Made by a program: the position numbers and the translations under genes. Of a stretch of 64,000 bases of DNA, positions 1,016-16,526 are shown piece by piece. This stretch comes from a virus. Where the stretch lies: positions 1 through 64,000 of the IMG/VR virus record IMGVR_UViG_3300050343_000285, one strand, 5' to 3'. How positions within the stretch are numbered: the first letter of the stretch is position 1; every line of letters begins with the position of its first letter. The notes below the pieces were generated by a model that had not been told where the DNA came from, did no database searches, and saw nothing but the letters and a program-made list of their open reading frames with translations.

Positions 1016-1282
1016 TTAGGCTAGTAAATTATTTGTTTCACTAATTATTTCTAATTCTTTATCATCAATTAATTTTGCAAAACAACTATAAGATATTTTT
1101 TGTCCTTCTAGTTGGGTTTCGGCATCTACCATATGTTTAGTGTAGACATTAATTCTATATCTATTTTCCCAAAGATTAGATGCCTTACACATTATTAAAT
1201 TTTTCGGTCTACCAATCCTTTTCATTATAAGATCGCATACTATTCCATCTGTTTCTACTGATACTGGATTTACTGCTGGCAT
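1016..1282 (-). CDS. hypothetical protein (88 aa)
   Basis: ORF with GGAGG SD; stop codon coincides with the edge of a 57-bp repeat. Confidence 0.75.
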   Translation of the reverse strand: MPAVNPVSVETDGIVCDLIMKRIGRPKNLIMCKASNLWENRYRINVYTKHMVDAETQLEGQKISYSCFAKLIDDKELEIISETNNLLA

Positions 1283-1506
1283 CTTAACCTCCTGTTGCTT
1301 TCTCTAGTTAATAAAATCTTTTAATCGGTTTTTTCTTCTTGACTATTTCTATATTTCTGTTATATTTATACAGGTCGGGAGGATAATACTAATATATTCT
1401 ATATATAAATACACCCTATCACCAACCAAGTACTATATCTTGATCATGCCTATAGATATTAAAATTATATAACCCATCATAATTGTTGTTATTAAAAATT
1501 CCATAA

Positions 1507-1689
1507 TTAAATTCTATTAGCCTCCATGCATTTGTTTTCATCTAATTTTGTATTAATATAAACTAAAGCAGACTCTAATGCTCCTTTAGCATCTTCTAGG
1601 TATTTTGTTTCTCCAGTACTATCGTGCCAATTCGTACGTATATTAGCAAAATTTATTAATTTCAATATCTGACTATTATAATTATTCAT
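1507..1689 (-). CDS. hypothetical protein (60 aa)
   Basis: ORF downstream of a 57-bp repeat. Confidence 0.6.
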   Translation of the reverse strand: MNNYNSQILKLINFANIRTNWHDSTGETKYLEDAKGALESALVYINTKLDENKCMEANRI

Positions 1690-1759
1690 AATACATTCCC
1701 TTAAAACTCGCTGACTATAACATCAAGACGCAAACCTGATAGGTTAGGTAATACAAATA

Positions 1760-1975
1760 TTAACCTAATTCACAACCATATAATCCAATACTAATCCCAT
1801 CCTTGTTATAACATTTACCAATAACAATAGAATTAAAACCATCATTATCAATACTTTGAATATAATGTTTCGTATACCTAGCACCTGACCAATAGTCATC
1901 AAATATTACAATCTTATCTATAATATTATCTTGACTAACAATCATTGCCCATCTTTCTTCCTGTATCAAAATCAA
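1760..1975 (-). CDS. hypothetical protein; probable start TTG at 1975 (track start 2014 lies inside the repeat)
   Basis: GGAGG immediately upstream of an in-frame TTG. Confidence 0.55.
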   Translation of the reverse strand: MILIQEERWAMIVSQDNIIDKIVIFDDYWSGARYTKHYIQSIDNDGFNSIVIGKCYNKDGISIGLYGCELG

Positions 1976-2281
1976 ATACCCTCCACTTTCGCTGACTATA
2001 ACCATTCTAACCAAACCTTTCGGTTTAGGTGTGACAATAGTTATCTCCTATTTATATTATAATTATAAAACCCTTCCTAAGTCCTTACTGGGAAACAACT
2101 TACGCCTCCTACCATTATATCGGATTTCAACCCCTTTGTCCATTAGGAAAAGAACGTAAGTCCTTGTCAGATATAGACTTATGAACATTAACTTTTCATC
2201 TTATTCATCTTATTATTATTGGCACATTTCGTGCGGCCGCTTTGTAGCTAAGTCCTTATCTAGTAACGACTTAGACATAAA

Positions 2282-2321
2282 TAAAAAAGAGAGGGCCGAC
2301 CTGACAACTAGGCCGACCCTC
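2282..2321 (-). terminator. intrinsic terminator after the DUF932 gene
   Basis: Minus strand GAGGGTCGGCCT-AGTTGTC-AGGTCGGCCCTC followed by TCTTTTTT. Confidence 0.75.
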
Positions 2322-2351
2322 AACTGGCAACGCACCACGAAAGGAGAGCGT

Positions 2352-3298
2352 TTAGAGCGAATTAGCGTATTCTGTTGCCAACGCTAAGGCTCGATTATTA
2401 GCAGCACCATTTTGACCAAACCACAGGCTTTCCATACGGTTATTAGTATTGCGACCTTTGGTGTAATTTAGATACTCGTTGAAGCCGTTGTAAGCAGCCC
2501 ACCACGTACCCTTAACTCCGGGCATACTTTGCTTTGGCCCTTCAATCGTAGCAAGAACATCATCAAGGATATTTTTGGTACGAGTTTTCAAGTCTTCGTC
2601 AGCAGTCTTTTCTACATTCAGCAATGTTTTAACATACTTGCGAACGTCAACCTGATTGAAGTTACGACCAGCAAGGAATCGGAACTGTTCAGCAGTAGCC
2701 TCGAACTGTCCGTTGATATTATCCATAATATCTCTGACATTATCTAGATTAGCCGCTGCACTTTTCGTATGTCTAATACGTAGAAGTTTGCTTACGCCGT
2801 TTTGGTGAGCAAAAGCCAAGGTATTGACACAAACAACACGAATTGGAGTGTATCCGACACGAATAGCGGTTGTGCCATCGTGACTGTTGGATAGAAGAAT
2901 AAACTTCTGCACCTCATCACCCTTGACAATTTCGCTAGGGTCACGGTTGAGTTGAGCCAAGGCCCAGACTTTTTGACCGTCACTTAACGAACCACCCGTA
3001 TGCAGACTGCATTCACCAGCATCAATAAATGGCTGAAACCAGTTAAAAGCATCTTTATTCTGAAGAGGAACATATCGTGGGCCGACTACACCTAAAATGG
3101 TATTGTCAGTCTTTCGATAGGTTGCTCTTGCAGGTACATCATAACCATCTTTGGTTACAAGGTCTTTCGTCCCTACTTCCCAATCAAGACCACTCGCCTC
3201 GATGCTTCCGAGATTGTTGGAGCATCTTCCAATTTTTCTCCAAGGCCATGCCAAGGAGTCGCTCCAGTGTAAAACATAGATTCAACATTAGCAGGCAT
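2352..3298 (-). CDS. DUF932 family phage/plasmid protein (frameshift near 3204)
   Basis: MPANVESMFYTGATPWHGLG start after SD AAGGA joins ASGLDWEV..., LLSNSHDGT, VRVVCVNTL, IRHT and GTWWAAYNGFNEY in another frame. Confidence 0.85.
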
Positions 3299-3453
3299 TT
3301 CAGTTCCTTTCGTAAGAGTGTCATTGCCTTTGTTCTCTCAGTATACCATATATATCGTCGGATGCAAGGGGTATTCTTTAAACAAAATAAAAATAAACGT
3401 AAGTCCTTGTCAGTAAACAACTTACGAGCAACCCGGCCGCACTATTTATGCCG

Positions 3454-4008
3454 TTATAGATATTCTATACCCAAGTCTTTTTTACAATATTCGGGATGGT
3501 TTCTGTATGCACACTCATCTTTTATATAAGAGTAAACCCCCATACACTTAGATCGTGAACTTTCTATATCAATACTTTTTAGGATATGCTTAATAGTATC
3601 TCCTGAACATATTAAATCATCAACAATAATATATTTCTTTGTATATGGGCCTTCTACATAGAATTTGCTGTACCCTTTTAAATCTTTCCTTACAATAATA
3701 ATGTTCTTTTTTAATAACTCAGCAATCTGTGGAACAATCATCAATCCGCTAGTACCACAACAGGCTATTGAATCATAATCAATATTTAACTTTTTTAGAT
3801 AAGAGTATGTTGTCATAATTATCCTATTTCGATATTTATGATTTAACAACTTAGAAGTATGAGCAGCGCCTTGTATAACGCTACCATCTTCATTTCTTCT
3901 GTATTCATCTAATTGTTGCATTAAAACATTCATAATATAAAGACTGGCGACCTGATTCGAACAGGCTATATAATTTATAACTAGATAGATATATGTGTCC
4001 CACCACAC
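3454..4008 (-). CDS. type I phosphoribosyltransferase-like protein (start probably ~3933)
   Basis: PRPP-binding motif YIIVDDLICSGDT; IACCGTSG and IIIVRK. Confidence 0.8.
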   Translation of the reverse strand: MWWDTYIYLVINYIACSNQVASLYIMNVLMQQLDEYRRNEDGSVIQGAAHTSKLLNHKYRNRIIMTTYSYLKKLNIDYDSIACCGTSGLMIVPQIAELLKKNIIIVRKDLKGYSKFYVEGPYTKKYIIVDDLICSGDTIKHILKSIDIESSRSKCMGVYSYIKDECAYRNHPEYCKKDLGIEYL

Positions 4009-4026
4009 CGCACCAGCCAGAAGAGA

Positions 4027-4206
4027 TCAGTATTCTATTTTATCACTAATATCATCATAATAATTCCAACTTTGTCTGTCAACGGTATCTTCTCTACAAT
4101 CTTCATCATACTCCTCATTATTAATCATGGACTCAATATAATTAGCGCTATTATCAAAAATATCATTATTGTTATCCTTTAATACTTTCCATTCAAAGCC
4201 ACTCAT
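4027..4206 (-). CDS. small acidic hypothetical protein (59 aa, below the track cut-off)
   Basis: MSGFEWKVLKDNNNDIF...; AAGGAGAG SD. Confidence 0.6.
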   Translation of the reverse strand: MSGFEWKVLKDNNNDIFDNSANYIESMINNEEYDEDCREDTVDRQSWNYYDDISDKIEY

Positions 4207-4244
4207 AAAATCTCTCCTTTGTGAAAACTACCGAACATCACCAG

Positions 4245-4317
4245 TACCCCCAGTAGGACTCGAACCTACAACATACGGTTTAAAAGACCGCTACTCTACC
4301 GATTGAGTTATAGGGGC
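4245..4317 (-). tRNA. trnK: tRNA-Lys(UUU), no encoded CCA
   Basis: Cloverleaf: GCCCCTA/TGGGGGT acceptor, anticodon loop CTTTTAA, GTTCGAGTC T-loop. Confidence 0.9.
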
Positions 4318-4321
4318 AAAG

Positions 4322-4394
4322 TAGGGCGTGAGGGAATCGAACCCACTTCTGTAGTTAATAAGACTACGGTCCTTGACCATTGAACGAACGCCCC
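4322..4394 (-). tRNA. atypical tRNA with anticodon UAU (Ile), U at position 37
   Basis: GGGGCGT/ACGCCCT acceptor, GTAGT-CTTATTA-ACTAC anticodon arm, GGTTCGATT T-loop with one T-stem mismatch. Confidence 0.7.
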
Positions 4395-4400
4395 GTAGCA

Positions 4401-4739
4401 CTACCACCAACTACTATATTCTACGCTCATGCCTTTGCAGATGGCTGCACGAGCATTCTGGATAAATTGAGTATCCTCATCCTTGTAATAATCATCACTA
4501 TCGCCACCAAAAAAGAAACCTTGAGTTTCTGGTAAATCTTTCTGATTAATGGCTTTATTGAGATCGTCAAGATCTTCTGTAGTTATTTCTACAGCCACGC
4601 AATTAAATTCTTCCTTGCCACCTTTTTTATGATACAAGTCTTCCATCCATCCCTGAAGATTAGGGTGTTTTCTCCAGCAAGCGATTTCTTCACTATTACC
4701 TTCTGAGTCTACAGCGTATGCAAATTGATCCAAACCCAT
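4401..4739 (-). CDS. conserved-looking phage hypothetical protein (MGLDQ...WRKHPNLQGWM...YSSWW)
   Basis: ORF with AAGGAG SD and sigma70 promoter TTGACT-16-TATAAT at 4759-4786. Confidence 0.8.
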   Translation of the reverse strand: MGLDQFAYAVDSEGNSEEIACWRKHPNLQGWMEDLYHKKGGKEEFNCVAVEITTEDLDDLNKAINQKDLPETQGFFFGGDSDDYYKDEDTQFIQNARAAICKGMSVEYSSWW

Positions 4740-4937
4740 TTGTCTCTCCTTTTCTTAAATTATACCCAAGATGTCCAATAAGTCAATAGTCCGCTAATGC
4801 TCTTCTCCGAATATCCATGCGGGTGCGAACTCTGCGAGGCCGGTTATCATGAGTACCAGAACCAGAACGATGAATGTTGTGTCCACGAGATACCTCCCAA
4901 GGTTTTTTAGTTGAAACTTTTATTGAACCACATTTAC

Positions 4938-5237
4938 TCATAGTTTATCCTTTAATAAGTCTTCAAGAAATTCCTTAGCAACATGATCAGGATCCTCTTC
5001 TACATCCACATCACATACATTTAGTTCTCCATCAAAAGCATCTCTGTATGCTACTCCTAAGTCTTCTAGTATGTAATCATCACGCTCATCTTCGTCTAAT
5101 TCCTGATACTCTGTACCTGTAATAATATGTTTATGAGATTCATTCTCTATATAATCTCCGATCCATTGAAATCTGATACTCTCAGGGTCAGCCTCAACCC
5201 AACCAGAAAACTCTATGATAATTTTAGTCATTACCAA
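4938..5237 (-). CDS. acidic hypothetical protein
   Basis: ORF track; GGAG SD. Confidence 0.65.
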   Translation of the reverse strand: MVMTKIIIEFSGWVEADPESIRFQWIGDYIENESHKHIITGTEYQELDEDERDDYILEDLGVAYRDAFDGELNVCDVDVEEDPDHVAKEFLEDLLKDKL

Positions 5238-5339
5238 GTTTCTCCACTATTAGGTCACAAATCATATCAATAGTGCTAGGATCACTACGACCATCAAGGA
5301 TACATCTAATGTCTTCTTGCATTTGTTCACATATCTCGT

Positions 5340-5513
5340 TCACTTTCTGCTCCAATCTCTAAAGAACTCCCATCGAATCCCAACGTCCATTGTACCATCT
5401 ACTGGTCGATTGTCAAGGGATATTGTTTTATTACAGAACATAGTGGTTTTTGTAGTTGTTACACATCCACTACAGAATATCAAGATGAACGCCAAACATA
5501 GTCTATATACCAT
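5340..5513 (-). CDS. small putative lipoprotein (57 aa)
   Basis: MVYRLCLAFILIFCSGC lipobox-like N-terminus; AAGGAGG SD; sigma28-like element at 5535-5562. Confidence 0.55.
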   Translation of the reverse strand: MVYRLCLAFILIFCSGCVTTTKTTMFCNKTISLDNRPVDGTMDVGIRWEFFRDWSRK

Positions 5514-5668
5514 TCCACTACCTCCTTAAGAGTTATATCGTCATCCTCAAGGATTTTCTTTACCTTATCTGTCTCTACCTGATTCATCACACTCATCTTG
5601 TGATTTAGGTAATCTAATACTGTTGTTATTTTTTCTTTTTTATCCAATATTATTCTCCAAATAGTTAA

Positions 5669-5740
5669 TAGCCCCGGCGAGAATCGAACTCACATCGACG
5701 GTTTAGAAGACCGCTGTTCTATCCGTTGAACTACGAGGCC
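5669..5740 (-). tRNA. trnR: tRNA-Arg(UCU)
   Basis: GGCCTCG/CGGGGCT acceptor, GCGGT-CTTCTAA-ACCGT anticodon arm, GTTCGATT T-loop. Confidence 0.9.
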
Positions 5741-5748
5741 AATAAGAA

Positions 5749-5797
5749 AGCCAGAGCCGCAGTCTTGGTTATCCCCATTGACGCTGCGACTCTGACT
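5749..5797 (-). other. long RNA hairpin (14-bp outer stem) between the ORF and tRNA-Arg; terminator or processing site
   Basis: AGTCAGAGTCGCAG/CTGCGGCTCTGGCT with G-U pairs only on the minus strand. Confidence 0.6.
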
Positions 5798-5804
5798 ATT
5801 CCGA

Positions 5805-6065
5805 TTAGGCTGTAGCAACTTCTGCTTCTACCCTAGCCTTAGATGCCTTATGAGCATCACCGGCTTCTTTAACGCCAATACCGAACTTACGGTTGCGAGC
5901 AACTTTCCATCCTTGTTCTGAATATTCCTTAACACCGTCTGCTTTACACAGGGCTAGAGTATCTTCAGGCAATCCGTCAGTAAGTGCTTGACGAATTGTA
6001 TCTTCGATAACTTCGGTATCAAGTGCCTCAGAAGCAATAGTAACATTAAAAGAAAAAGCCTTCAT
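5805..6065 (-). CDS. hypothetical protein (86 aa)
   Basis: ORF downstream of composite promoter 6142-6170. Confidence 0.7.
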   Translation of the reverse strand: MKAFSFNVTIASEALDTEVIEDTIRQALTDGLPEDTLALCKADGVKEYSEQGWKVARNRKFGIGVKEAGDAHKASKARVEAEVATA

Positions 6066-6252
6066 GGTGAAATCTCCAAAAGTAAACCAAACTTAGTAAC
6101 TCGCACAGTGCTTGTCACTTATAATATCATTCTACCATATATTATCGTCATGTCAACCTTAATAACTTGAGGAAAGGTAAAAAAATAATCTCTCGTAAGT
6201 CGTTGATATAAAACAACTTAGGCATGCTGCGTGCGGCCGTTTTTACAGAAAG

Positions 6253-6590
6253 ACCCGTTACAGCCCTACTTCTCAAAGATGTCTTTTAGTCAAATAAGAC
6301 TAATAACCCTCATAACGATTTTCAGCGATCTGTAACGGGTAATAGATAAACCGCCTTGCCCCATGAAACAATAACAGGATAGGTCTTACAGGCGGTTATA
6401 TTATTGGACGGGGAGGACTTCTTTTTCTACCTCCAACTTTTCAGGGCATGATATGTCAGTGTTCCCTACTTCGCACCGCTAGCCCAAACCTCAAGCACTC
6501 GCCCGTTGGTAAGGATTCGCGTACTGTTGCACCCTCATGCGGGCCAGCACACTTTCAGTCACCGTCCTATAACAGGGTAGCGAACCCTGC
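6253..6590 (-). ncRNA. structured non-coding cassette containing a 163-nt tRNA-like multibranch RNA (6405-6567) and flanking long stems
   Basis: GGACGG/CCGTCC+A closing stem stacked on GGAGG/CCTCC; GCTGGCCC/GGGCTAGC; AACCGCCT/AGGCGGTT; ACCCGTTACAG/CTGTAACGGGT; GC-rich; no ORF of 60 aa or more. Confidence 0.7.
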
Positions 6591-6601
6591 TATGTATTGT
6601 A

Positions 6602-7117
6602 TTATGTTTCCTCCATAGTATCATAGTATTCGTGCATACTGAACTCATCTCGCAGAGATTCTGGAAAATCGTTCCAGTTGCCCTCATAAGAATCATCCGT
6701 ACCATTGTGCCATATTCCGGCAAAACTCATCCCTGGCTCAAAATAGGACGCTTGTACGTCAAATCCCAAGACTACCAACCTCTCATAGAATCCCAATGGA
6801 GGACTCCATGCACTATCGAACGTTATACTAAGTTCGTTATCTACCCTAGTTGGTTCCAGACCATACCCATCTCCACATCCAATATCCCACTTTGTACCCC
6901 AATTGGCTACACGCCATAGATACCAGTTGTTGTTTACGTTATCATCTTTGCTCATAGCCTTATTCTCACCCATCATCATAGTTGGATCACTGGGATCTCG
7001 TGGAGTAGGATAGAAAGTTTCGATAGTCCAATCATTCCGATAGGCTTTCTCGAATTTGTCCAGCATAGACTTATCTTCGTGTGTTACAGTCAATTTATTC
7101 ATGCACCAATTAGGCAT
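6602..7117 (-). CDS. YubB/Api92-like (DUF1281) ferredoxin-like domain protein
   Basis: MPNWC...WYLWRVANWGTKWD...FDSAWSPP...YFEPGM signature. Confidence 0.8.
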   Translation of the reverse strand: MPNWCMNKLTVTHEDKSMLDKFEKAYRNDWTIETFYPTPRDPSDPTMMMGENKAMSKDDNVNNNWYLWRVANWGTKWDIGCGDGYGLEPTRVDNELSITFDSAWSPPLGFYERLVVLGFDVQASYFEPGMSFAGIWHNGTDDSYEGNWNDFPESLRDEFSMHEYYDTMEET

Positions 7118-7508
7118 AACATCTCTCCTCTACAATATGTATTCTGTTGCCGTCCGTGACCAGACTATTAAAGTCATAGTCGTCCCAATCAAAATCGCCG
7201 TCATCATTCACTCGTCTCCAACTTGGCTCGACTATAGGATTATAACATAATCTTTCTAGGTTGTCAATAGGTATACTACCCTTTTCATTTATAAAAAAGT
7301 TATCACATTCTACCCAACCACAGACATCCTTCTTTCCTGCTGCATGAACTTTCTTAGCAGCATTTTTTTTATTTATTAGTATACAGCCTGTCATTTCGAT
7401 CTGATACTTTTGTGGATCAAGATACGAGACTGTACCATCCCATGCTCTAATCTGCCAGTGCATATAGTGCTTACCACGTTGCAAGTGAAATCGTACTCTG
7501 TATTTCAT
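7110..7508 (-). CDS. hypothetical protein (start MKYRVRFHL; track start overlaps the promoter)
   Basis: GGAGAAGGAG SD before the ATG at 7508. Confidence 0.7.
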   Translation of the reverse strand: MKYRVRFHLQRGKHYMHWQIRAWDGTVSYLDPQKYQIEMTGCILINKKNAAKKVHAAGKKDVCGWVECDNFFINEKGSIPIDNLERLCYNPIVEPSWRRVNDDGDFDWDDYDFNSLVTDGNRIHIVEERCYA

Positions 7509-7601
7509 AATTATCTCCTTCTCCCTAGTATACATTATCGGCATTATATTGTCAAGAACTTTAGTAATTTCGCTGACTGCACCATTGCCACCAATCCTAT
7601 A

Positions 7602-7822
7602 GGATAGGGTGAGACATAATAGGACTTAGGCATTACTCGTACTAGAGCAACTCTTTCCCGTATACCTGTCAGGCTGCCAAGGTGGTATACGCCCTATCCA
7701 TCTTAATGTACGGCCATCGCACTAGGGACTTGCACCCTACAAGTATCTCCGAATGTTTGACGACAAAGCCTTATCGTATCACAATCTTGGGCTTGAATAC
7801 TTGGGTAACTCTTCCGTGCCAT
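7602..7822 (-). ncRNA. second structured non-coding cassette: tRNA-like ~107-nt RNA (7716-7822) plus a multibranch hairpin (7602-7699)
   Basis: ATGGCAC/GTGCGAT acceptor-like stem, TAGGG-TGCAAGT-CCCTA T-arm, CAAGTATT/GATACTTG; GGATAGGG/CCCTATCC enclosing GTATACC/GGTATAC; directly downstream of promoter 7843-7870. Confidence 0.65.
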
Positions 7823-7941
7823 GTATTGTAAGTATACTATATTTATCGTCATTGTCAATAGTATTCTTTAGTATAATATAGAAATAATTATGGCACAAGG
7901 AGTGCGGCCGGGTCGCACGTAAGTCCTTATTCTACAACAAC

Positions 7942-8169
7942 TTACGTAGGGTATCCTTCTTTTCTTAAAATGTCTTTAGTTGGTACGACAAAAGTTAATT
8001 GGTCCGCATTCGTATAGTCTTTCATTCCACGCTGATCAATATACATATACTCGTCTAAAATATCATGTTTATTCATTTCATGTATCACTGTTCTACAGGC
8101 AGCGTAGGGTTGTTGACTTGTCGAATAAATTAATTGTAGAGTACCACTTGAAATATAATATTTAGCCAT
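7942..8169 (-). CDS. hypothetical protein (75 aa)
   Basis: ORF; stop codon falls inside a 29-bp inverted repeat. Confidence 0.65.
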   Translation of the reverse strand: MAKYYISSGTLQLIYSTSQQPYAACRTVIHEMNKHDILDEYMYIDQRGMKDYTNADQLTFVVPTKDILRKEGYPT

Positions 8170-8389
8170 CTATCCATACCTCCGAGTGTGAATATTCCAT
8201 ATCTATATCACATCCACCGCAAACAGGAGTTCCATTCTGTTCGTACCAATCTGGCATTATCTCAACTTCTGTACTACAGTCTTGACATATCCAAAAATTT
8301 TTTATGTGATCATCTGGTATTTTTGTAAACATTATAGGATTCTTTCTTAATGAGATGGAAACAATACGTTGCCTAATCCCTTTACGCAC
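8162..8389 (-). CDS. small zinc-ribbon protein (start probably 8332)
   Basis: CQDC...CGGC pairs. Confidence 0.65.
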   Translation of the reverse strand: MRKGIRQRIVSISLRKNPIMFTKIPDDHIKNFWICQDCSTEVEIMPDWYEQNGTPVCGGCDIDMEYSHSEVWIDG

Positions 8390-9057
8390 AAATTACAGGC
8401 TACACTATTCTTAGTAGGGGTGCAAGTAACAACACCACGACCACGACGAATCTCTGGACAAGTAATATATTTTTCTTCACCAAGAACAACCAACTTGGGC
8501 AGACTATCACGCCATTCTTGAGCCTTAACCTTTCCCCTTGGACGTTTAGTAGCAATTTTTTCGTCGCTATCGCACCATGCGAATAATTTGAAACCTACCG
8601 CTTTGGCATCGAGAACATTTTGAGCATTGTGGACACTAGCATATACAGCCATATACTTGTCCAGACTAACAAGCCGACTATCATAAATATGAGTATAAAA
8701 CCACATATCTGGCAAATTACCACCAGAGGCAAGAATACTCTCGCAAGCCCATACGATATTATCGACATATTCTACATCCAATTCTGAACCATTTTTATAA
8801 AAATCACCACGCTCATGCCAACGAATAGACTTATCTTTTTTTTCTGCGTTCACTATCATAGCACGGATTTTGTTTTTCTCCGTGATTAGATTCTGCATAC
8901 CAGCAGGACGAACACCGGGATAAATTTTTTCTAATTGTTCGGCATAACAACCATTACCTAGAAAATCACAACTAGGCGGGCATGTGTCCCCAACTGGTCG
9001 AGAAACTACAATACATTTTTCTTTACCTAGTTTATCATTACCGTTTGCTGTTTTCAT
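8347..9057 (-). CDS. phage gp88-like protein
   Basis: TCPPSC...GCYA, IRWHERGDF, WFYTH, YASVH, TCPE...C...CNLC pattern. Confidence 0.7.
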   Translation of the reverse strand: MKTANGNDKLGKEKCIVVSRPVGDTCPPSCDFLGNGCYAEQLEKIYPGVRPAGMQNLITEKNKIRAMIVNAEKKDKSIRWHERGDFYKNGSELDVEYVDNIVWACESILASGGNLPDMWFYTHIYDSRLVSLDKYMAVYASVHNAQNVLDAKAVGFKLFAWCDSDEKIATKRPRGKVKAQEWRDSLPKLVVLGEEKYITCPEIRRGRGVVTCTPTKNSVACNLCVKGLGNVLFPSH

Positions 9058-9311
9058 AATACTGCTCTCCGTGTGTGTGCTTCAAGTATATCATATTATC
9101 GTCTGGTGTCAACTAAAAACTATAGAAAAAATAAAAATAATGTTTGGCACAGAATTTGCTACACTTTCGCTGGCTATACCATATCGGCCCAGCCTTTAGG
9201 CTTAGATAAGACATGAGGTCTTTCGGCACACGGAGTGCGGCCGGTCCGCACCTAAGTCATTGCTGGGCAACAACTTAGGGCGGTTCACGGCACACACACC
9301 ACGGAAGAGAG

Positions 9312-9695
9312 TTATGCTACTGCCCAACCAAATAATGGCTTGCGGCAGTTCTTTACACGTTCGCAGTAAAACTGTCGAACATTACCATCCACTGTTTCAC
9401 ATGTTACCAAATGATTGGTACGCTGAAACTTTGGATCATTTCGACGATAGGTACTATGAGCATTCATTTTACGAATTGTCCGCTCGTCGAACTTTACAAC
9501 AGGCTCCACAACGCGAGCCAAAACACGTTTTGAGTCTCCGTGTAGAGGTTGCATATACTCAAAGTTGTATACTTCTCCAACTTGAGCATTGCACAAACTA
9601 GCACGAAAACCACCATATACAGCATAGATACCAAACGCAATCAACGCAAGGGCTCCTGCTGCTAAGATACCAGCAATCAACATTACATTATCCAT
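9312..9695 (-). CDS. hypothetical protein with N-terminal TM helix (start MDNVML)
   Basis: Hydrophobic LIAGILAAGALALIAFGIYAV; upstream sigma70 promoter 9733-9761. Confidence 0.7.
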   Translation of the reverse strand: MDNVMLIAGILAAGALALIAFGIYAVYGGFRASLCNAQVGEVYNFEYMQPLHGDSKRVLARVVEPVVKFDERTIRKMNAHSTYRRNDPKFQRTNHLVTCETVDGNVRQFYCERVKNCRKPLFGWAVA

Positions 9696-9757
9696 TATAA
9701 AACTCCTAAGTGTGAAAACCAAACCTAAAACCATTCTACCATACTCTTGACACCGTG

Positions 9758-10060
9758 TCAAGCCTTAATCGTCATTCCATCCTCAAAAGGTGTAATCCCA
9801 TTTACATACCATTCCCAATTTTCTTGGCGTACATAAAAAGGACTAAACTTATTGATTCTGTCTTTTGTCGTGGGTGATTTGTGCCCACCATGTCTTAGCG
9901 TTACGCTGTCGTCATCATGAATAGTAACAACATCCGTACTGTATAACATGAAAGCCACGCTACCATCCGGCTTGATTCTTGCGGTGGTATTATTGGCTAC
10001 CTTACGTTGCATTCTGTTAGTCTTACCTAAAACCAATTGTGTTGCTTCTGCGTGTGTCAT
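9758..10060 (-). CDS. hypothetical protein (100 aa)
   Basis: AAGGAG SD; composite promoter 10082-10110. Confidence 0.75.
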   Translation of the reverse strand: MTHAEATQLVLGKTNRMQRKVANNTTARIKPDGSVAFMLYSTDVVTIHDDDSVTLRHGGHKSPTTKDRINKFSPFYVRQENWEWYVNGITPFEDGMTIKA

Positions 10061-10184
10061 AAGTATTTCTCCTTACTTGTTATATCGTCAATTATACAGG
10101 GTAAACTTTAGTTGTCAACAGAAAAAAAAGAAAATAATTTTTGGCATACTGCGTGCGGCCTCTTTTTATGTAAGTCCTTATAGA

Positions 10185-10529
10185 TCAATCACTTACGTTC
10201 ATATCTCTGTGACCCCAAAATCTCATTTCGTTTTCTTTATCATCCCAATAGCATTGTACCTCATCTTTAGAACATAGTTCGGCTAATACAAAACCCATAT
10301 TCATACTATTGACATCTTCTAAAAACATTTCCATTTTTTCTCTAGTAGATATAAACTCCCCATCGTCTTCTTCACAATAGCCACGTAAATGATTAATCAA
10401 CATACCCTCATTAAGATTTTCAAAGTCTGGAATTATATGTTCAACAACGCGATTAAGATCTACCGCAAATTCTTCCATGGTTTTTCTCCTTAATTTTTCA
10501 AAATCAGCAACTAACAACCAACTCATCAT
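10185..10529 (-). CDS. acidic hypothetical protein (start probably ~10478)
   Basis: ORF; 3' end overlaps a 29-bp inverted repeat. Confidence 0.6.
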   Translation of the reverse strand: MMSWLLVADFEKLRRKTMEEFAVDLNRVVEHIIPDFENLNEGMLINHLRGYCEEDDGEFISTREKMEMFLEDVNSMNMGFVLAELCSKDEVQCYWDDKENEMRFWGHRDMNVSD

Positions 10530-11097
10530 CCTGTACTAAATTACGCTCTAGCATACGATCCATAATAGTATCCATAAGCCTACCATAATCATATGTTGGC
10601 TCATCTTGAAAATCAAGCCCTTCCGACGGGTGAATAATAAAGTCTAAGGTATCATGAGGTATTGATGCTGTTATCTTATCCCCACTATGTTCAAAATACT
10701 TACAAATATTATTATAACTACCTACAGCAATAGAATATGGTGCAGAAGTTTGAGTAAGTATGATGTAATCAAACATTTTTTCTATATTATAGTTTTTACC
10801 TAACTTGTTAGCAATCGTTACAGCATTGGTTTTGCCAGTACGTTTCTGGAACATTTTTTGTTGAGATTTTCCAGATACTCGTTCTTTACAAAAAGTCCAA
10901 TCGTATCCAACCTCATCTACATATTCTAGATATGGAAAAACTTTAGCATATTTTTTATCAATCAGTTTTGCTTTCATAAATCTGTGACCAGAATCATTTA
11001 AGCTGGCTCCAATGTTATGGCATTGTTGAAGTAGTTCGTGACAGCTTTTTGGACTGTTAGTTAAATAAGCTGAGAGTAAATTACTTACGGTTTTCAT
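10504..11097 (-). CDS. hypothetical protein, possible PD-(D/E)xK nuclease fold
   Basis: GYD...ERVSGK and FDYIILTQ motifs (weak). Confidence 0.6.
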   Translation of the reverse strand: MKTVSNLLSAYLTNSPKSCHELLQQCHNIGASLNDSGHRFMKAKLIDKKYAKVFPYLEYVDEVGYDWTFCKERVSGKSQQKMFQKRTGKTNAVTIANKLGKNYNIEKMFDYIILTQTSAPYSIAVGSYNNICKYFEHSGDKITASIPHDTLDFIIHPSEGLDFQDEPTYDYGRLMDTIMDRMLERNLVQDDELVVSC

Positions 11098-11159
11098 AGC
11101 GTTGTCCTTTCGTATTTAGTATCTTACCATACTATTATCGACGTGTCAATATCAAAACT

Positions 11160-11465
11160 TTATTCTTCGTAAGTAATAAATACCCACGACCACTCTCTGG
11201 TTTTTAGATTGTATTTATAATGTTTATAAACTACCCTATTGTAAATATGTCTATTGTCCACAGTGGTTTTAAGAATATCATTTTCCAGACTTATATCTAC
11301 TATATCAGAGTAGGGAAAGTCTAACAGCAAACGATAGTCGCTACTGTAAAACCAGTAGGTATTATATGTCTTATTGTATGTTCTATGGACACGTTCACCT
11401 ATATAATCTAAATCAATTACACAGTTTCCTGAAATAGCTAATCCTAAAATTAGTTTTAATAACAT
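11160..11465 (-). CDS. hypothetical protein, signal-peptide-like N-terminus
   Basis: MLLKLILGLAISGNC; AAGGAG SD. Confidence 0.65.
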   Translation of the reverse strand: MLLKLILGLAISGNCVIDLDYIGERVHRTYNKTYNTYWFYSSDYRLLLDFPYSDIVDISLENDILKTTVDNRHIYNRVVYKHYKYNLKTREWSWVFITYEE

Positions 11466-11647
11466 TTTGTTTTCTCCTTGTTTTAGTCTTAAGTATTGCT
11501 ATTCTACCAATTATTATCGTCTAGATCAAGCAATTTCTTGATTTTTATTTTGGTAGCTGTAAGTGCTTGTCAAATAAGAACTTAGGCACGCAGAGTGCGG
11601 CCGGGTAGCCCCTCTAGGGGGTGAACCCTATTTGAGGAGCATTACCT

Positions 11648-11860
11648 TCAATTAGATGTAATATTGTTGTAAGGATAATTCCCATTATAAGGGCTGTTAC
11701 CATAATTCGGACTAGGCTCTTCTGGTCTTTCCTCGTAGTATTCTTCTCGTTCATATTCGCTCTCCTTAGCGTCTAACATATCCCTGAGATACCAACACAA
11801 CAACGTGCCGCATACATATCCTATCGTCAAACTAGCAACGTCAAGTTGAATAAAATTCAT
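11648..11860 (-). CDS. small membrane protein
   Basis: Hydrophobic N-terminal segment; overlaps the upstream stop codon (ATGA). Confidence 0.6.
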   Translation of the reverse strand: MNFIQLDVASLTIGYVCGTLLCWYLRDMLDAKESEYEREEYYEERPEEPSPNYGNSPYNGNYPYNNITSN

Positions 11861-12087
11861 TCTCCCTTATACTCCTCATAAGTGAAACTTTGTACGCCAT
11901 TACGATATTGTTGCTCTACAACACCTGAAATTGCTACAATATTTTCTTGACGATCTTCTGGTGTGTTAAGATCAATTCTAGGTACTGCTACCATGATTGT
12001 CAAGTTGTCCTGCTCTTCGCCTGTAATTTCATCGACAATATTTTTGCAATCGTAGTATCTAAAATTTGGATCCATCGCGTTATTCAT
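11857..12087 (-). CDS. hypothetical protein
   Basis: Translationally coupled ORF. Confidence 0.65.
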   Translation of the reverse strand: MNNAMDPNFRYYDCKNIVDEITGEEQDNLTIMVAVPRIDLNTPEDRQENIVAISGVVEQQYRNGVQSFTYEEYKGE

Positions 12088-12266
12088 TTTTCATCCCTGT
12101 ATCGTTTGAGTAATTCTTTAGAACCTGATCGAACCACATTTTCTAATATCTCTAATTCTGTCAAGTCTCCTCTCAATTTTGCTTTCGGGATGTCCTTTCC
12201 ACATTCCCTAACCCACATCTGTATATCTTCGGTTGGAAATTCGTCAAAATAGTATGGCATATCCAT
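12084..12266 (-). CDS. hypothetical protein
   Basis: Translationally coupled ORF. Confidence 0.6.
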   Translation of the reverse strand: MDMPYYFDEFPTEDIQMWVRECGKDIPKAKLRGDLTELEILENVVRSGSKELLKRYRDEK

Positions 12267-12269
12267 AGT

Positions 12270-12533
12270 TTAACCCCAATCTTCTGGATACTCAAGACAG
12301 TCGTGGTAGCATTCCCATTCCGCCCCGTATCCGTATAGATCGTTACATTCCTGCTCAAGATCAGGCTGTCCGTCATCATCCCCATCATAGAAGGCATGTT
12401 CGTACTGATCATCCTCCATCATGTCACGGGTGTCAAGACCATCAACAACGTCCTCATCTGAACGATAAATGTTTTCAGCAGGTGTCATAACTTTTCTCCA
12501 ATTGGGTCTTGTTGTTATATTCCAAGTATACAA
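12270..12533 (-). CDS. acidic hypothetical protein (start probably ~12488)
   Basis: Track start overlaps promoter 12537-12564; GGAGAAAAGTTATG. Confidence 0.6.
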   Translation of the reverse strand: MYTWNITTRPNWRKVMTPAENIYRSDEDVVDGLDTRDMMEDDQYEHAFYDGDDDGQPDLEQECNDLYGYGAEWECYHDCLEYPEDWG

Positions 12534-13022
12534 TCATTATCGACATTGTCAAGCGAAATCTTTATTTTTTTTCATAGATTGTGTCCAAGTAAATTTCCTC
12601 CGGCGTGATAACATAACCATACTCACAATTAGGGGTATACACTCCGAAATATACTTTTCCGTTGTCGTACCCTTCGAACCCGATCATCATGCCAAAGATA
12701 GTGTAGATTGTCAACATCATTTTTCTCCGTGGGTTATTGTTTCCTATATATATTATCGACTTGTCCAGGCGAAAACATTAGGATAAAAAAGAAAATTTTT
12801 GGGAATTCACTGGCTGTCGTGCTATGACAAGTGAAGCGGGAGGCTTAGGTGCGACAGAACGTATACCAACTTTGGCGGCCGGTCGAACTGCTCGTAAGTC
12901 CTTTACTGACAACAACTTACGATTACTTTATGTTAAATACTAATTTAGTAAACATATAAGCAAACAACAACACGTACCCCATCGAAACGATAGGGCCGTA
13001 TTGCTGAATGAATGGAACCAAG

Positions 13023-13286
13023 TCAAGCCACGGCTGCATCATCTTCTTCTACCTCGTCGTCTTCCGCATCTTCAGCAAAACATGCTGCGTTGATCTCATC
13101 TATATCTAAGTTGCTATCATTCCATGCTACATGGTCAGGAGTTTCCAGTGAATCCAACTCCCGCATAGTACCAACAAACTCATCATAATTAGCACAAGAC
13201 ATGCTGAGATTGTAGAGCCCTTCATCGTTAGCAATCCACAAGCAAACATTCCACGTTTCATAGTTTTCATATCCGTTGTAACTCAT
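13023..13286 (-). CDS. phage hypothetical protein (YNGYENYETWNVCLW type)
   Basis: GAGG SD; sigma70 promoter TTGACG-16-TATACT at ~13332-13359. Confidence 0.75.
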   Translation of the reverse strand: MSYNGYENYETWNVCLWIANDEGLYNLSMSCANYDEFVGTMRELDSLETPDHVAWNDSNLDIDEINAACFAEDAEDDEVEEDDAAVA

Positions 13287-13490
13287 GATAGCCTCTCAAG
13301 TAAAATCATTGAAACAGTAACCACTAAGAAAAGTATAACACACATTCCATCAGCGTCAAATCTTTTTTTCATCTTTAACTCCTTACTGTTATATCGACAT
13401 TATATACAGTATAACTTTAGTTGTCAATAGATAAATTTAAAATATTTTGCGGCCGCACTCCCTGTGCCTAAGTCCTTTACCGATAATGGT

Positions 13491-13919
13491 TTACGTCAAC
13501 AATACATATCGTTTCTTATTACCTCCCATTGTTTCCAGTTTTGAAATTTTATGTCGAAAAAATAAGGCTGCTTTCCCTTGTATATATCTACTGCTTAGAT
13601 GTTGATTCATTTCCTCGAATGATATTTTATCTTTACCCTCTACCATCTGATTCCATATAACATCTTTCTGCTCTGATGTAACATACTTAGGATTCATAGG
13701 AGTAGCAGTCATACTCTTCATCTTTTGTTCAATTTGTTTCTCTACAAACTCTGGTGATAGGTCACTCATAATATCAGAGTACTGTTCTTTTATATCCTTT
13801 ACTCTCTGCTCATATCGTTGGTACTGCTCTATTATCAGTCGATTCTGAATTAGTACTTCTGCCATATCTCTGCACATATCATCTAATGCTGTCAATCTTG
13901 TTTCAAAATCCATAATCAT
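13491..13919 (-). CDS. hypothetical coiled-coil protein
   Basis: ORF track; coupled to the upstream gene. Confidence 0.7.
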   Translation of the reverse strand: MIMDFETRLTALDDMCRDMAEVLIQNRLIIEQYQRYEQRVKDIKEQYSDIMSDLSPEFVEKQIEQKMKSMTATPMNPKYVTSEQKDVIWNQMVEGKDKISFEEMNQHLSSRYIQGKAALFFRHKISKLETMGGNKKRYVLLT

Positions 13920-14182
13920 TCTCCTTTGGATGTTTTATTGCCCCATGCTTTAATAGCAGATACTGAACATGCGTGAAGGTTATTGTCAAATTTAAATATA
14001 CCTCCTACCGTTTCAATACTCTCTGTTGCCCAACCCTTACCATCATTCATGTCTTCTCTGTAATAACACATCTCCGTTCCTTTATAAGTATACATATCTA
14101 CAACTTTCCTACGCCATCCATGACCCTTTTTTCTTTCCCATACACTTCCGGTTTCTACTGTAATTATTTTTCTGTTACTCAT
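13916..14182 (-). CDS. hypothetical protein
   Basis: Coupled ORF. Confidence 0.65.
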   Translation of the reverse strand: MSNRKIITVETGSVWERKKGHGWRRKVVDMYTYKGTEMCYYREDMNDGKGWATESIETVGGIFKFDNNLHACSVSAIKAWGNKTSKGE

Positions 14183-14343
14183 TGTAAAAGTTCCTGCAAT
14201 GTAAAATGTTGTCTGCTACTCTCATTCCGTCCTTATCGTCAGTCTCCCAACAAGACACGTAGTACATTTGTACCAAACGAGTTGATAACTTGTCAAGGAT
14301 ATCATATAGGTTCTTTTCAATTAGTTCGTTCATTGTAAGCATA
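14175..14343 (-). CDS. hypothetical protein (start MLTMNEL)
   Basis: GGAGAG SD inside the end of the upstream gene. Confidence 0.55.
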
Positions 14344-14679
14344 CTCTCCTGTGTCATAGTTTCTAATCTCTTGTAGTCTATCAGCAATTTCAAAATGGTC
14401 AAGCCATCCAAATACTTCTACCGCCCCATGTCGCTTGTGTATAGGATGACTCTCTAATACTTTGTACGACATATTAGGATCGGTGCCGTGTTTATGTTCT
14501 ATAATCCAGACTTCAAAGTAGCCGCTATTCCCGCCATAACTTTTGTCATGATTACACACAATAGCACCAAGCCCATTAGAGAAAAAATAACGCTTAACAT
14601 ATCGACCCTTCTCTTTCATATACTGGGAATCAAAATATGTTTCATTTAGTTTCAGTGGGTTCACTTTAGTTGTGATCAT
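14317..14679 (-). CDS. hypothetical protein (FSNGLGA...YGGNSGYFEV type)
   Basis: GAGGAG SD. Confidence 0.7.
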   Translation of the reverse strand: MITTKVNPLKLNETYFDSQYMKEKGRYVKRYFFSNGLGAIVCNHDKSYGGNSGYFEVWIIEHKHGTDPNMSYKVLESHPIHKRHGAVEVFGWLDHFEIADRLQEIRNYDTGEYAYNERTN

Positions 14680-14878
14680 TTTTTACTCCTCAATATGTGA
14701 TAGTGTGAATGGGATTATAACATGATCGGCTACCTTTTGTCTAGCCTCAGTTTCTGTCATGGCCCCAACTTCGCCAATCTTATTTCCTTGTAGGTCAATT
14801 ACAGCCCAAACATTTTTTCTAGGATACACTACGCAATTATTGTTACTCATTTTAATTTCTCCTTATTTATAAAGTTTA

Positions 14879-15061
14879 TCAGCCAGCCCCGTGGAAGTCA
14901 AGGCTAGATTCAAAATGTACAGCTTCCGAACAATCAAAGTCTGTACGATCTTCGATAACCTCACAATGTTCGTAGCATGTGGGACAGATGTCTGCGTCGG
15001 AGTGAACCGAAGCACCACAGCAGTCTGAAGAGTAAACGATTTCAAAGTTGTTATTTAACAT
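14879..15061 (-). CDS. small Cys-rich (zinc-binding) protein
   Basis: SDCCGA...ICPTCYEHC; promoter 15113-15140. Confidence 0.7.
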   Translation of the reverse strand: MLNNNFEIVYSSDCCGASVHSDADICPTCYEHCEVIEDRTDFDCSEAVHFESSLDFHGAG

Positions 15062-15299
15062 TTTCTTTTCTTTCTAATCTTTGTTACTTGTTATATCTGA
15101 AGTATATATACTATATCGGAATTTGTCAAGCAATAATTTAGAAATATTTTTATTTTTTTTCTGTGTGCAAATATCATGCCATAATTTTTTTTCTTTTGGC
15201 ACATGATTTGCTATATGTTAAGATAGGTAACCCGGCCGGGCGAAATGCTCGTAAGTCATGATGTGGCAACGACTTACGAACATCCACCCCAATGGGTGA

Positions 15300-15512
15300 T
15301 TATGCAGCCTGATAGTGGCGTATACGATTACTTCTTCTTACTCTTTTTAGTTTTTCTCGTACGGCTTCTTTCATAAGTTCAGCAACTACACTATATTTTT
15401 TTGTAGTGTAAGTCTGTTCATTATCTCTTAGATCTTGTCCAAGTGTACGGATCCAAGCATCTAGTTCAACTGTTTTCATTTGCTGGAAAGTACTCATAGG
15501 TTTATTCTCCAA
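15300..15512 (-). CDS. hypothetical protein
   Basis: ORF track. Confidence 0.6.
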   Translation of the reverse strand: MENKPMSTFQQMKTVELDAWIRTLGQDLRDNEQTYTTKKYSVVAELMKEAVREKLKRVRRSNRIRHYQAA

Positions 15513-15786
15513 ATGGTGATTGTTCTAAGGTGGTTGCATAATGTAAACGTAACGCTGCTATTCTTTCATCACTTCCCGGTTTACCTACTGGTATAATCAT
15601 ATCGTCTTTACTACTAAGATACCTATCGTCTACCTTCGCTTGCTCACTCTTTACAATTTTTCTCATAGCCTTTCTATTAAACTTATGAACCGTACCATCC
15701 TGTTCAACACCTTTCCATATCATACTACATTCATCCCATGCAGCGGATAAAATAGGATATTTTCTCATTAGTTTTTCTGTACTCAT
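15502..15786 (-). CDS. hypothetical protein
   Basis: ORF track. Confidence 0.65.
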   Translation of the reverse strand: MSTEKLMRKYPILSAAWDECSMIWKGVEQDGTVHKFNRKAMRKIVKSEQAKVDDRYLSSKDDMIIPVGKPGSDERIAALRLHYATTLEQSPFGE

Positions 15787-16148
15787 TTTTTATCATCCTC
15801 AAATATAGGGTCGCCACACTCATCAACTGGTATACCGTCTTCACTCATAAATATATCACCATTCCGCAGTCCGTCAATAGTAATTTCTAATTTTTCTTGC
15901 TCTGTAAACATTTAGAATCTTTCCTGTCTACTGTGCTGCATTTAAGTAAATTTCATCGAATAAGTCTACCCCAGTGACTTCACACCAATCAAGCGGGTGT
16001 GAATTGTTGTCATCGCAAGGTTCTACCACACCTTCATTTTCTAGGGCGGCAATTAACAGTTGAGTATTTATATCTAACATCTCAATTTCTCCGTGGTAAG
16101 TGTATCAAAAGTGTACCAAAATTTTTCTGTCTACGTCAATAGCAAAAA

Positions 16149-16346
16149 TTAACCTAATCCCCAAACGCGGTTTAGGTCATAACTATTCTGTAATGTTCTC
16201 ATTACAATAGAATCATCTTGACAAAATTTGCCATTCTTAGCATATCCGATTACCTTGTTGGTATCGGTTGTTACTACTACTTGACGATTGTGAACGTCTA
16301 CGATTTTAAGATTGTTAGCTATTCGATTTTTTTGTGAAATAATCAT
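16149..16346 (-). CDS. hypothetical protein
   Basis: AAGGA SD; promoter 16378-16406. Confidence 0.65.
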   Translation of the reverse strand: MIISQKNRIANNLKIVDVHNRQVVVTTDTNKVIGYAKNGKFCQDDSIVMRTLQNSYDLNRVWGLG

Positions 16347-16526
16347 TTTTTATCCTTTGTTTAATGTCCTATTTACTATATCGGAATTTTAGCATAGTAA
16401 ACTTTAATGTCAAGAAAAAACTTTTTTTCTTTTCTAATATATATATAGTGCAAGTATCATGCCATTCGGATAAAATTTTTTTGGCTATACTTGTATACTT
16501 TTTATATTGTCATTATGGCATAATTC

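Follow-up and report, generated by a model that had tools for sequence, protein, structure and literature searches.

The first 64 kb of a large uncultured phage genome (IMG/VR record IMGVR_UViG_3300050343_000285; this 64,000-nt stretch is called the window here) carry, from 2.0 to 16.5 kb, a series of intergenic control cassettes, or hubs, in which a conserved palindrome, a σ54-type box and a σ70 promoter interleaved with a σ28-type element are combined between small gene blocks. We give a probability of roughly 0.5 to a composite model in which these hubs would be junction cassettes between transcription units, similar to the promoter-early stem-loops (PeSLs) of T4-type phages, with a protein-bound palindrome at the unit boundary and a forward promoter open to two sigma factors. 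The first-pass annotation of this DNA had named seven example hubs built from three parts, and we found all three at each of them; the parts are modular, their order and orientation varying between hubs. What had been described as a 29-bp inverted repeat is the palindrome TAAGT-N15-ACTTA plus its usual CG flanks.

Three motifs are enriched and combined in the hub region

All three motifs were more frequent in the window than in any of 100 dinucleotide-preserving shuffles of it, none of which reached the observed count for any motif. The palindrome is present in 11 exact copies (0.31 expected from the shuffles) and one degenerate copy, the σ54-type box GGCAY-N5-KTGC in 12 copies (0.76 expected) and the σ28-type unit AAAG-N15/16-KNCGATAW in 10 (0.40 expected). 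Nine of the 10 σ28-type units lie on the minus strand, which is the gene strand of the arm that holds the hubs (the early arm), and σ70 sites with 11-12 of 12 matching positions between 1 and 18.5 kb are found 17 times on the gene strand versus once on the other. Nearly all motif copies fall within 2.0-16.5 kb. The other 179 kb of the genome contain no further N15 palindrome; outside the window, the 195-kb genome has one more σ54-type box, at 180.5 kb, and six more composite promoters between 170 and 192 kb, which belong to the same leftward arm and have neither palindrome nor box. The reported absence of the parts from the late region held for the arm from 18 to 64 kb except for one weak σ28-type match at 25467-25494. 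The hubs are:

6142-6238: promoter, palindrome 6196-6220, box 6221-6234
7843-7946: promoter, box 7892-7905, palindrome 7920-7944
9096-9279: promoter, boxes 9146-9159 and 9225-9238, palindrome 9253-9277
10082-10197, 11514-11602 and 15113-15278: all three parts each
13391-13495: all three parts, palindrome 13469-13493 degenerate
2078-2273 and 3352-3452: further hubs
12740-12919: further hub, without box
16378-16463: further hub, without palindrome

Read on the minus strand, the usual order is gene-block end, palindrome, box, A/T-rich tract, promoter, Shine-Dalgarno site and gene, with each palindrome placed between the 3' side of one gene block and the promoter that follows.

The record from which the window is taken is 194,787 bp long, has 33% G+C and is rated complete. 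Its genes run leftward from ~18.2 kb to position 1 and resume at 195 kb down to 65 kb, while rightward genes occupy 18.2 to 65 kb and include the virion genes, among them terminase and a tape measure protein of 2932 amino acids (aa). The hub region corresponds to the first 16 kb of this ~148-kb leftward arm and holds small open reading frames (ORFs) and three to four tRNA genes. A terminase search recovered a relative, phage G001-G004, with 91% terminase identity and a syntenic early arm of ~75% nucleotide identity. Since the leftward arm runs across the record start, as seen from synteny with the relative, that start is arbitrary, the genome being permuted or arbitrarily cut, and the idea that the hubs occupy the first-injected DNA found no support. 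Within hub 9096-9279 we also noted one copy (~9162-9179) of another repeat family, with the sense-strand core GGTTATAGTCAGCGA, of which three to four copies lie near the record start (window 442-1769) and similar copies in hubs of G003; this repeat may be a small-RNA end or another promoter part.

A σ28-type element is nested in the forward σ70 promoters

Promoters of σ70 type, with TTGACA, a spacer of 16-18 nt and TATAAT aimed at a gene, are present throughout the hubs, and the forward promoters of the early arm, all on the minus strand, are:

2114-2142, minus: σ70-type promoter, TGGACA-N17-TATAAT with CCGATAT within the spacer
3352-3380, minus: weaker composite promoter, TAAAG ... GACGATAT
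5535-5562, minus: weaker composite promoter, TAAAG ... GACGATAT
6129-6170, minus: composite promoter, register A, TCAAG / TTGACA / GACGATAA / TAGAAT
7527-7563, minus: composite promoter, register A
7831-7870, minus: composite promoter, register A
9085-9124, minus: composite promoter, register A, nearly identical in G003
10082-10118, minus: composite promoter, register B, TTGACA / TAAAGTTT / TATAAT / GACGATAT
11121-11162, minus: composite promoter, register A
11501-11541, minus: composite promoter, register A
12525-12564, minus: composite promoter, register A
12740-12780, minus: composite promoter, register A, weak -35 (TGGACA)
13391-13427, minus: composite promoter, register B
15093-15129, minus: composite promoter, TTGACA-N17-TATACT with CCGATAT in the spacer and CAGATATAAC downstream
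16378-16413, minus: composite promoter, register B

The two elements are interleaved in two fixed registers: in register A the order is TAAAG, TTGACA, GNCGATAA and TAnAnT, and in register B it is TTGACA, TAAAGTTT, TATAAT and GTCGATAT. T[AC]AAG stands 20-21 nt ahead of the [GT]NCGATAW box in 79 of 132 register A and 18 of 20 register B promoters. Since TAAAG lies inside the σ70 spacer in register B, it does not form an UP element there, and the identical distance in both registers marks TAAAG and CGATA as a bipartite unit independent of the σ70 hexamers. Promoters of σ28 (FliA/SigD) have the consensus TAAA-N15-GCCGATAA; the phage sequence TAAAG ... GCCGATAA/T equals the FliA/SigD consensus, with full matches in relatives, and many copies match all 13 defined positions. 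Across the 45 loci with a composite promoter, all 134 copies are confined to one strand per locus and, at the loci scanned for tRNA genes, they share the strand of these genes. Flagellin promoters of palindrome-bearing bacteria showed a clear σ28 site in Treponema only, and that promoter has a start-to-start spacing of 20 nt, the same as the phage unit.

The only full sigma factor of the phage (25630-26289) resembles extracytoplasmic function (ECF) sigma factors and is not FliA-like, and the σ28-type unit could be read by a host σ28, by this ECF-like sigma or by a 55-aa region 4 protein. The latter is encoded at genome positions 104954-105121 on the minus strand (L402:1477-1644) and consists of a σ70 region 4 helix-turn-helix alone. 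The divergent ECF-like gene, on the plus strand, heads the virion-gene arm. Directly upstream of it, in a gap of 406 nt, is a σ28-like pair (TAAAG ... ATCGATAT; 25540-25575, plus strand) with a slightly longer spacer. Boxes resembling TGTGTATATAAT occur in late-arm gaps at ~18.29, 21.28, 31.14, 36.69, 39.37 and 43.57 kb and are possibly promoters of the ECF-like sigma.

σ54-type boxes mostly point away from the genes

The -24/-12 promoter recognised by σ54 (RpoN) has the consensus TGGCAC-N5-TTGCW (Barrios et al. 1999). The window has the following boxes with GG and GC exactly 10 nt apart, as at -24 and -12 of that consensus; four of them, those of class II, have TTGC:

2221-2234, plus: class I (GGCAY-N5-GTGC + GGCCG), antisense, 28 nt before palindrome
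3439-3452, minus: class I, sense, 28 nt before palindrome
6221-6234, plus: class I, antisense, abuts palindrome
7892-7905, plus: class I, antisense, GG and GC lost in the G003 orthologue
9146-9159, plus: class II (TGGCAC-N5-TTGC), antisense, kept with the promoter in G003
9225-9238, plus: class I, antisense
10143-10156, plus: class I, antisense
11585-11598, plus: class I, antisense, abuts palindrome
13455-13468, minus: class I, sense, abuts degenerate palindrome
15167-15180, minus: class II (TGGCAT-N5-TTGCA), sense
15198-15211, plus: class II, antisense
16450-16463, minus: class II, sense, ~37 nt upstream of promoter 16378-16413

Class I, GGCAY-N5-GTGC followed by GGCCG, accounts for eight copies, on either strand, each at a set distance from a palindrome, which it abuts or precedes by 28 nt. 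Class II, TGGCAY-N5-TTGCW, has four copies, antisense at 9146 and 15198 and sense at 15167 and 16450. Near palindromes we collected 38 unique boxes, 34 of them in related phages and four in this window; their logo, TTTGGCACR-N3-TTTGCT, agrees with the consensus at positions that our pattern did not force, namely T before GG, R after CAC, TTT before GC and T/A after GC. The boxes, at least those of class II, are very probably σ54 sites. Class I is less secure in this respect because GG and GC are lost in the G003 orthologue, where CCCC/GGGG hairpins plus CGGCCGGCCG are found at the class I position; this position, 39 nt after the palindrome start, is the same as that of the consensus boxes of other phages. 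When we scanned viral contigs with the class I pattern (GGCAC-N5-GTGCGGCCG), only single, chance-like matches in G+C-rich contigs were obtained.

Eight of the 12 window boxes are antisense to the genes and hence not placed to drive them; the antisense to sense ratio is 55:23 overall and ~41:12 near palindromes in related phages. Since the boxes begin 34-40 nt past the palindrome start, a transcript from an antisense box would start at the palindrome edge and proceed backward into the preceding unit. The phage genome encodes neither σ54 nor a σ54 activator. A weak match to an AAA+ 'σ54 activator' at 156 kb was rejected as a RuvB-like helicase. We conclude that the σ54 boxes are not the drivers of most early genes. 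The proposal that early genes fire under several sigma factors is supported, at the sequence level, for the forward promoters, with their gene-directed σ28-type pair at fixed spacing in two registers in dozens of relatives, and not for σ54.

The phage palindrome avoids pairing and is phased with the promoter

The palindromes in the window are:

2078-2102: palindrome TAAGT-N15-ACTTA
2157-2181: palindrome
2249-2273: palindrome
3400-3424: palindrome
6196-6220: palindrome
7920-7944: palindrome, its TAA being the stop codon of ORF 7942-8169
9253-9277: palindrome, with a palindrome at the same gap in G003
10171-10195: palindrome
11560-11584: palindrome
12895-12919: palindrome, followed by CGGCCG at 12876-12881, without σ54-type box
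13469-13493: degenerate palindrome, one arm GTTTA, not ACTTA
15252-15276: palindrome

The logo of 172 unique phage copies reads CG TAAGT nn TT D N5 H AA nG ACTTA CG. At positions 6/20 and 7/19 the phage copies pair less often than expected by chance (7/19: 30 versus 57 expected), with C-C or G-G favoured, and at the flanking pairs G-U is not in excess of A-C and there is no strand bias. This pattern speaks for two DNA half-sites that would be read independently, rather than for a simple RNA stem. Distances from the palindrome to the -35 hexamer peak at 45, 55, 66, 77, 98, 108 and 119 nt. With 61 de-duplicated cassettes from 34 loci, we obtained a Rayleigh R of 0.70 at a period of 10.5-10.7 bp, which none of 5000 random sets reached, the cassettes being related and their independence incomplete. 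This phasing suggests that the palindrome lies on a fixed helix face relative to the promoter. Many relatives carry doublets in which two palindromes flank a G+C-rich dyad of ~27 nt, the starts being 52-53 nt apart in 17 of 26 next-palindrome distances and 46 nt apart in five, and tRNA clusters of relatives stop 0-6 nt before a palindrome.

No T-run follows the phage palindromes, and they are not among the terminator-like sites of the early arm, whose lone canonical terminator with hairpin and T-run is at 2321-2291 on the minus strand. This terminator follows directly after the DUF932 gene and stands just before the palindrome at 2249-2273. Only some copies fold better than shuffled sequences, with the sense strand of 9218-9288 at z = -5.8 and that of 7885-7955 at z = -2.5. 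An Rfam scan reported three tRNAs only, and no Rfam family matches the palindrome. Integration host factor (IHF) was considered as a binder and set aside: the half-site fits CAA-N4-TTA, yet the palindrome is conserved far beyond what IHF needs.

Hub geometry is conserved in related phages

The syntenic relative has 12 palindromes. At orthologous hubs G003 keeps the palindrome arms and, over ~85 nt, hardly differs from the window in class II box, A/T tract and promoter, the other spacer being diverged or carrying insertions. Scanning IMG/VR with the palindrome pattern yielded at least 119 stretches, many with 4-11 copies. Seventy-seven of these stretches have two or more palindromes, and clustering of their ORFs showed single early-gene families of the window (such as DUF932, a GP88-like family and several of small ORFans) in as many as 20 of the 77, so the cassettes are a clade-wide feature. 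Many related phages carry cassettes of palindrome and promoter without any σ54 box, and the box is hence optional. The genes that lie between hubs are not the same in the window and in G003; the non-homologous stretches, 15649-13286 and 12557-9743, touch hubs and are not cleanly bounded by them. Neither a relative nor a similar cassette was found among cultured phage records by megablast, tblastn or blastn.

The palindrome is shared with bacterial mobile elements and stable-RNA loci

A stricter 18-base pattern, searched in one genome per prokaryotic species, gave at least 120 matches versus ~9 estimated by chance from pattern length and database size. Among the matches listed, most are from Planctomycetota, others coming from Spirochaetota, Fibrobacterota, Gemmatimonadota, Verrucomicrobiota, Acidobacteriota and Bacteroidota. 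A few multi-copy matches are phage contigs binned into metagenome-assembled genomes (MAGs), and the rest are single or dispersed copies. Fifteen of 143 bacterial copies lie 4-24 nt past the 3' end of a tRNA or transfer-messenger RNA (tmRNA) gene, and more were seen by eye. On a Verrucomicrobiae chromosome (L383-L389, G009), six near-identical insertion sequences with a DDE_Tnp_1 transposase each contain the palindrome, placed 44 nt upstream of a TTGACT box, a phage-like spacing, and ~100 nt before the transposase ORF. A Phycisphaerae MAG (L403-L414, G010) has ~14 dispersed repeats of ~170 nt that resemble miniature inverted-repeat transposable elements (MITEs), with the palindrome in the centre and AACGAACCCAAA direct repeats flanking it. 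Two further copies adjoin tyrosine integrases (L332, L334).

Seven bacterial copies are near genes for σ54 activators, and at L357:4503-4560 and L363:623-730 the order is σ54 activator gene, palindrome, σ54 promoter and gene, which suggests that the palindrome can occupy σ54 control regions. Within 130 nt of bacterial palindromes, σ54-type boxes show a 3.2-fold enrichment (P = 0.008); only ~6% of copies have one. TTGAC shows a weak peak 41-43 nt past bacterial palindromes, and neither convergent nor divergent gene pairs are depleted around them. Collectively, the palindrome is a portable signal of mobile elements and stable-RNA loci in these phyla, the phages having taken up a variant in which hairpin formation is avoided, and its bacterial distribution hints at the phage hosts. 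In the literature on Planctomycetes palindromes we found no description of the element.

Composite model and alternatives

In the composite model, the hubs would separate transcription units at the beginning of the long leftward arm, which is made up of small accessory genes and tRNAs. The 25-29-bp palindrome (CG TAAGT nn TT N7 AA nn ACTTA CG), often accompanied by CGGCCG or a GC-hairpin module, would mark the end of the upstream unit and most likely acts as double-stranded DNA under a dimeric, probably host-encoded, protein. Then would come, as an optional part, a σ54-type -24/-12 box usually aimed back at the palindrome, and the A/T-rich tract with a strong σ70 promoter interleaved with a σ28-type promoter (TAAAG, 15-16 nt, GCCGATAW) in two fixed registers. 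Each small gene block would thereby become an autonomous unit that could be fired by two RNA polymerase holoenzymes, one with host σ70 and one with a flagellar-type sigma, possibly the divergent sigma of the phage. The palindrome-bound protein may insulate the unit and/or tune the promoter from its phased upstream position, and the backward σ54 boxes may keep polymerase in a closed complex where two units meet or may give rise to short antisense RNAs that cross the palindrome. Being repeated, the cassettes could also act as joints for gene-block exchange, as proposed for T4-type PeSLs; this is the part of the model that we hold most loosely. Motifs, enrichment, geometry, orientation and conservation are observations here, and from them we infer each step of binding and transcription.

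Several observations weigh against the composite model. Besides the relatedness of the cassettes behind the phase statistic, the palindrome-to-promoter distances of this phage itself (64, 86, 147 and 165) are less regular, the conserved early proteins have no recognisable DNA-binding domain and the phage has no ParB. The σ28-type elements are 20-21 nt apart from start to start versus 19, 1-2 nt above the E. coli consensus. The loss of GG/GC from class I in G003, at hub 7843-7946, means that these boxes may be a small GC hairpin and not a σ54 site. This spacing and this loss would be expected if the likeness to σ28 and σ54 promoters were coincidental, TAAAG with GCCGATAW and GGCAC-N5-TTGC being bound by phage or host regulators, for example in shutting off or boosting early promoters, while σ70 alone transcribes; the phage also lacks a σ54 activator, most boxes are directed away from genes, and TAAAG of register A could belong to an A/T-rich tract that resembles an UP element. 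We regard coincidence as unlikely, since TAAAG of register B, within the σ70 spacer, still keeps its 20-21 nt to the CGATA box, many copies match all 13 defined σ28 positions and the σ54 boxes fit their consensus at unforced positions. In line with the sponge or roadblock idea of the first-pass annotation, the array might instead capture host polymerase: σ54-type boxes, at which stable closed complexes need no activator, would in their backward orientation serve, together with the palindrome-bound protein, as roadblocks that end units without a terminator and/or draw σ54 and σ28 holoenzymes off host genes. The single canonical terminator of the 18-kb arm, the missing activator gene and the position of boxes at unit ends, facing oncoming polymerase 34-40 nt from the palindrome start, are consistent with capture, yet twelve sites are few for titration and many related cassettes have no box, and we consider this explanation improbable.

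At the RNA level, some bacterial palindromes follow tRNA genes and carry a T-run as in ordinary terminators, and the inner stem of the bacterial copies covaries (7/19: 46% paired versus 25% expected), which also counts against the composite model and leaves an RNA hairpin with some likelihood. The palindrome would then act mostly as RNA or as a single strand, terminating the transcripts of stable-RNA and mobile-element genes or protecting their 3' ends as a hairpin, and would be spread by phages, insertion sequences and islands, the hub being an ordinary terminator-promoter cassette; the tRNA- and tmRNA-linked copies and the well-folding sense strands of the two phage segments named above agree with this. 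The phage copies, however, avoid pairing at 6-7/19-20, have neither T-run nor strand bias, are in helical phase with the promoter and in several cases fold no better than shuffles, and the sequence of the outer arms is kept from phylum to phylum, more than a plain terminator would require. We judge a hairpin role quite unlikely for these reasons. The pdif modules of Acinetobacter plasmids exchange gene blocks at recombinase sites, and the 11-7-11 geometry of the palindrome, with two ~11-bp arms around a variable 7-bp centre, would fit the core site of a host tyrosine recombinase (Xer- or integrase-like) that swaps gene blocks between co-infecting phages. Copies at tRNA/tmRNA ends and beside the two integrase genes, and the different gene content between hubs in the window and G003, point the same way, but the phage has no tyrosine recombinase or integrase, most bacterial copies are not beside integrases, helical phasing with promoters is unexpected for such a site, and the central 7 bp vary between copies, which would block exchange between them; recombination is very improbable as the main role. 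Going beyond the composite model, hubs might be control nodes wired to three host holoenzymes, with both σ54 and σ28-type promoters in use and the palindrome bound by a host factor, possibly a σ54 activator, given the L357 and L363 copies between activator genes and σ54 promoters. The first genes would then read the motility or cell-cycle state of the host, that is, the flagellar σ54 to σ28 cascade of cells that swim, such as those of Planctomycetota-like hosts, in a programme common to a clade of large uncultured aquatic phages. We can propose this extension only tentatively and think it more likely wrong than right by a good way.

Neighbouring features

Adjoining the divergence point, the first gene of the leftward arm encodes a 485-aa HNH endonuclease (16745-18202, minus strand). 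ARAGORN reported a tRNA-like gene with a four-base anticodon (atct) at 3941-4018 on the minus strand, a site without an Rfam report; it overlaps the end of a phosphoribosyltransferase-like ORF (3454-4008).

Significance and comparison with known systems

Phage early transcription is usually described in terms of σ70 promoters or a phage polymerase. Here a clade of large uncultured phages has a flagellar-sigma-type promoter nested in its σ70 promoters, together with σ54 boxes and a cross-phylum palindrome at unit boundaries. Should the extra sites be in use, early expression would depend on the alternative sigma factors of the host and hence on its motile or stressed state. Even as mere binding sites they bring to light a palindrome that occurs in phages and, in Planctomycetota and other phyla, in insertion sequences, in MITE-like repeats and next to tRNA and tmRNA genes, and whose distribution points to an unrecognised, widely used DNA signal and offers a clue to the phage hosts. 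The cassettes are compact and easily tested by reporter assay. The control layout is, in our view, real and undescribed, its working being inferred from sequence.

Each part has a known counterpart. As in σ28 (FliA/SigD) promoters, both elements match, often at every defined base, and are gene-directed at a fixed spacing; in the phage the spacing is N16-17 versus N15, though the Treponema flagellin promoter is equally long, and the units always overlap a σ70 promoter, in two registers, and do not precede motility genes. The boxes share with σ54 promoters the invariant GG and GC at the exact spacing plus flanking consensus positions, but they are mostly antisense, have no visible activator gene or upstream enhancer, are followed by a conserved palindrome just downstream of the expected start and, in the class I variant (GTGC + GGCCG), are not conserved in the nearest relative. 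Like repetitive extragenic palindromic (REP) sequences, bacterial interspersed mosaic elements (BIMEs) and MITE-like repeats, the palindrome is short and dispersed, with several to many copies per bacterial genome, often in doublets, in mobile elements and at gene ends; unlike them, its outer arms are conserved across phyla and not within one species, its copy number is low (1-17 per genome), and lytic-type phages reuse it beside promoters.

The claim that no such phage architecture has been described stands insofar as we found no phage study with this combination, nor any description of such a layout in the literature on σ54 or σ28 promoters in phages; it has to be narrowed because the palindrome is not phage-specific and the PeSLs of T4-type phages are a close analogue. 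PeSLs are composite terminator/promoter cassettes (Arbiol et al. 2010, PMC2839356; Comeau et al. 2014, PMC4122927), and the hubs have the cassette layout described for them (PMC4122927): a repeated inverted repeat, then an A/T-rich tract, a near-consensus σ70 early promoter and a Shine-Dalgarno site. Both kinds of cassette lie amid small variable genes and tRNAs, and the genes between them vary between relatives. In contrast to PeSL carriers, this phage is not of T4 type, having a siphovirus-like 2932-aa tape measure protein, an ECF-like sigma and no T4 core among the proteins scanned; its inverted repeat is conserved across many phages and bacteria, avoids pairing and has no T-run, and its promoter is interleaved with a σ28-type pair and joined by σ54-type boxes. 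What appears to be new relative to PeSLs is thus a conserved, probably protein-bound palindrome, a σ28-type promoter putatively nested in a σ70 promoter in two registers, and candidate σ54 boxes that mostly face backward.

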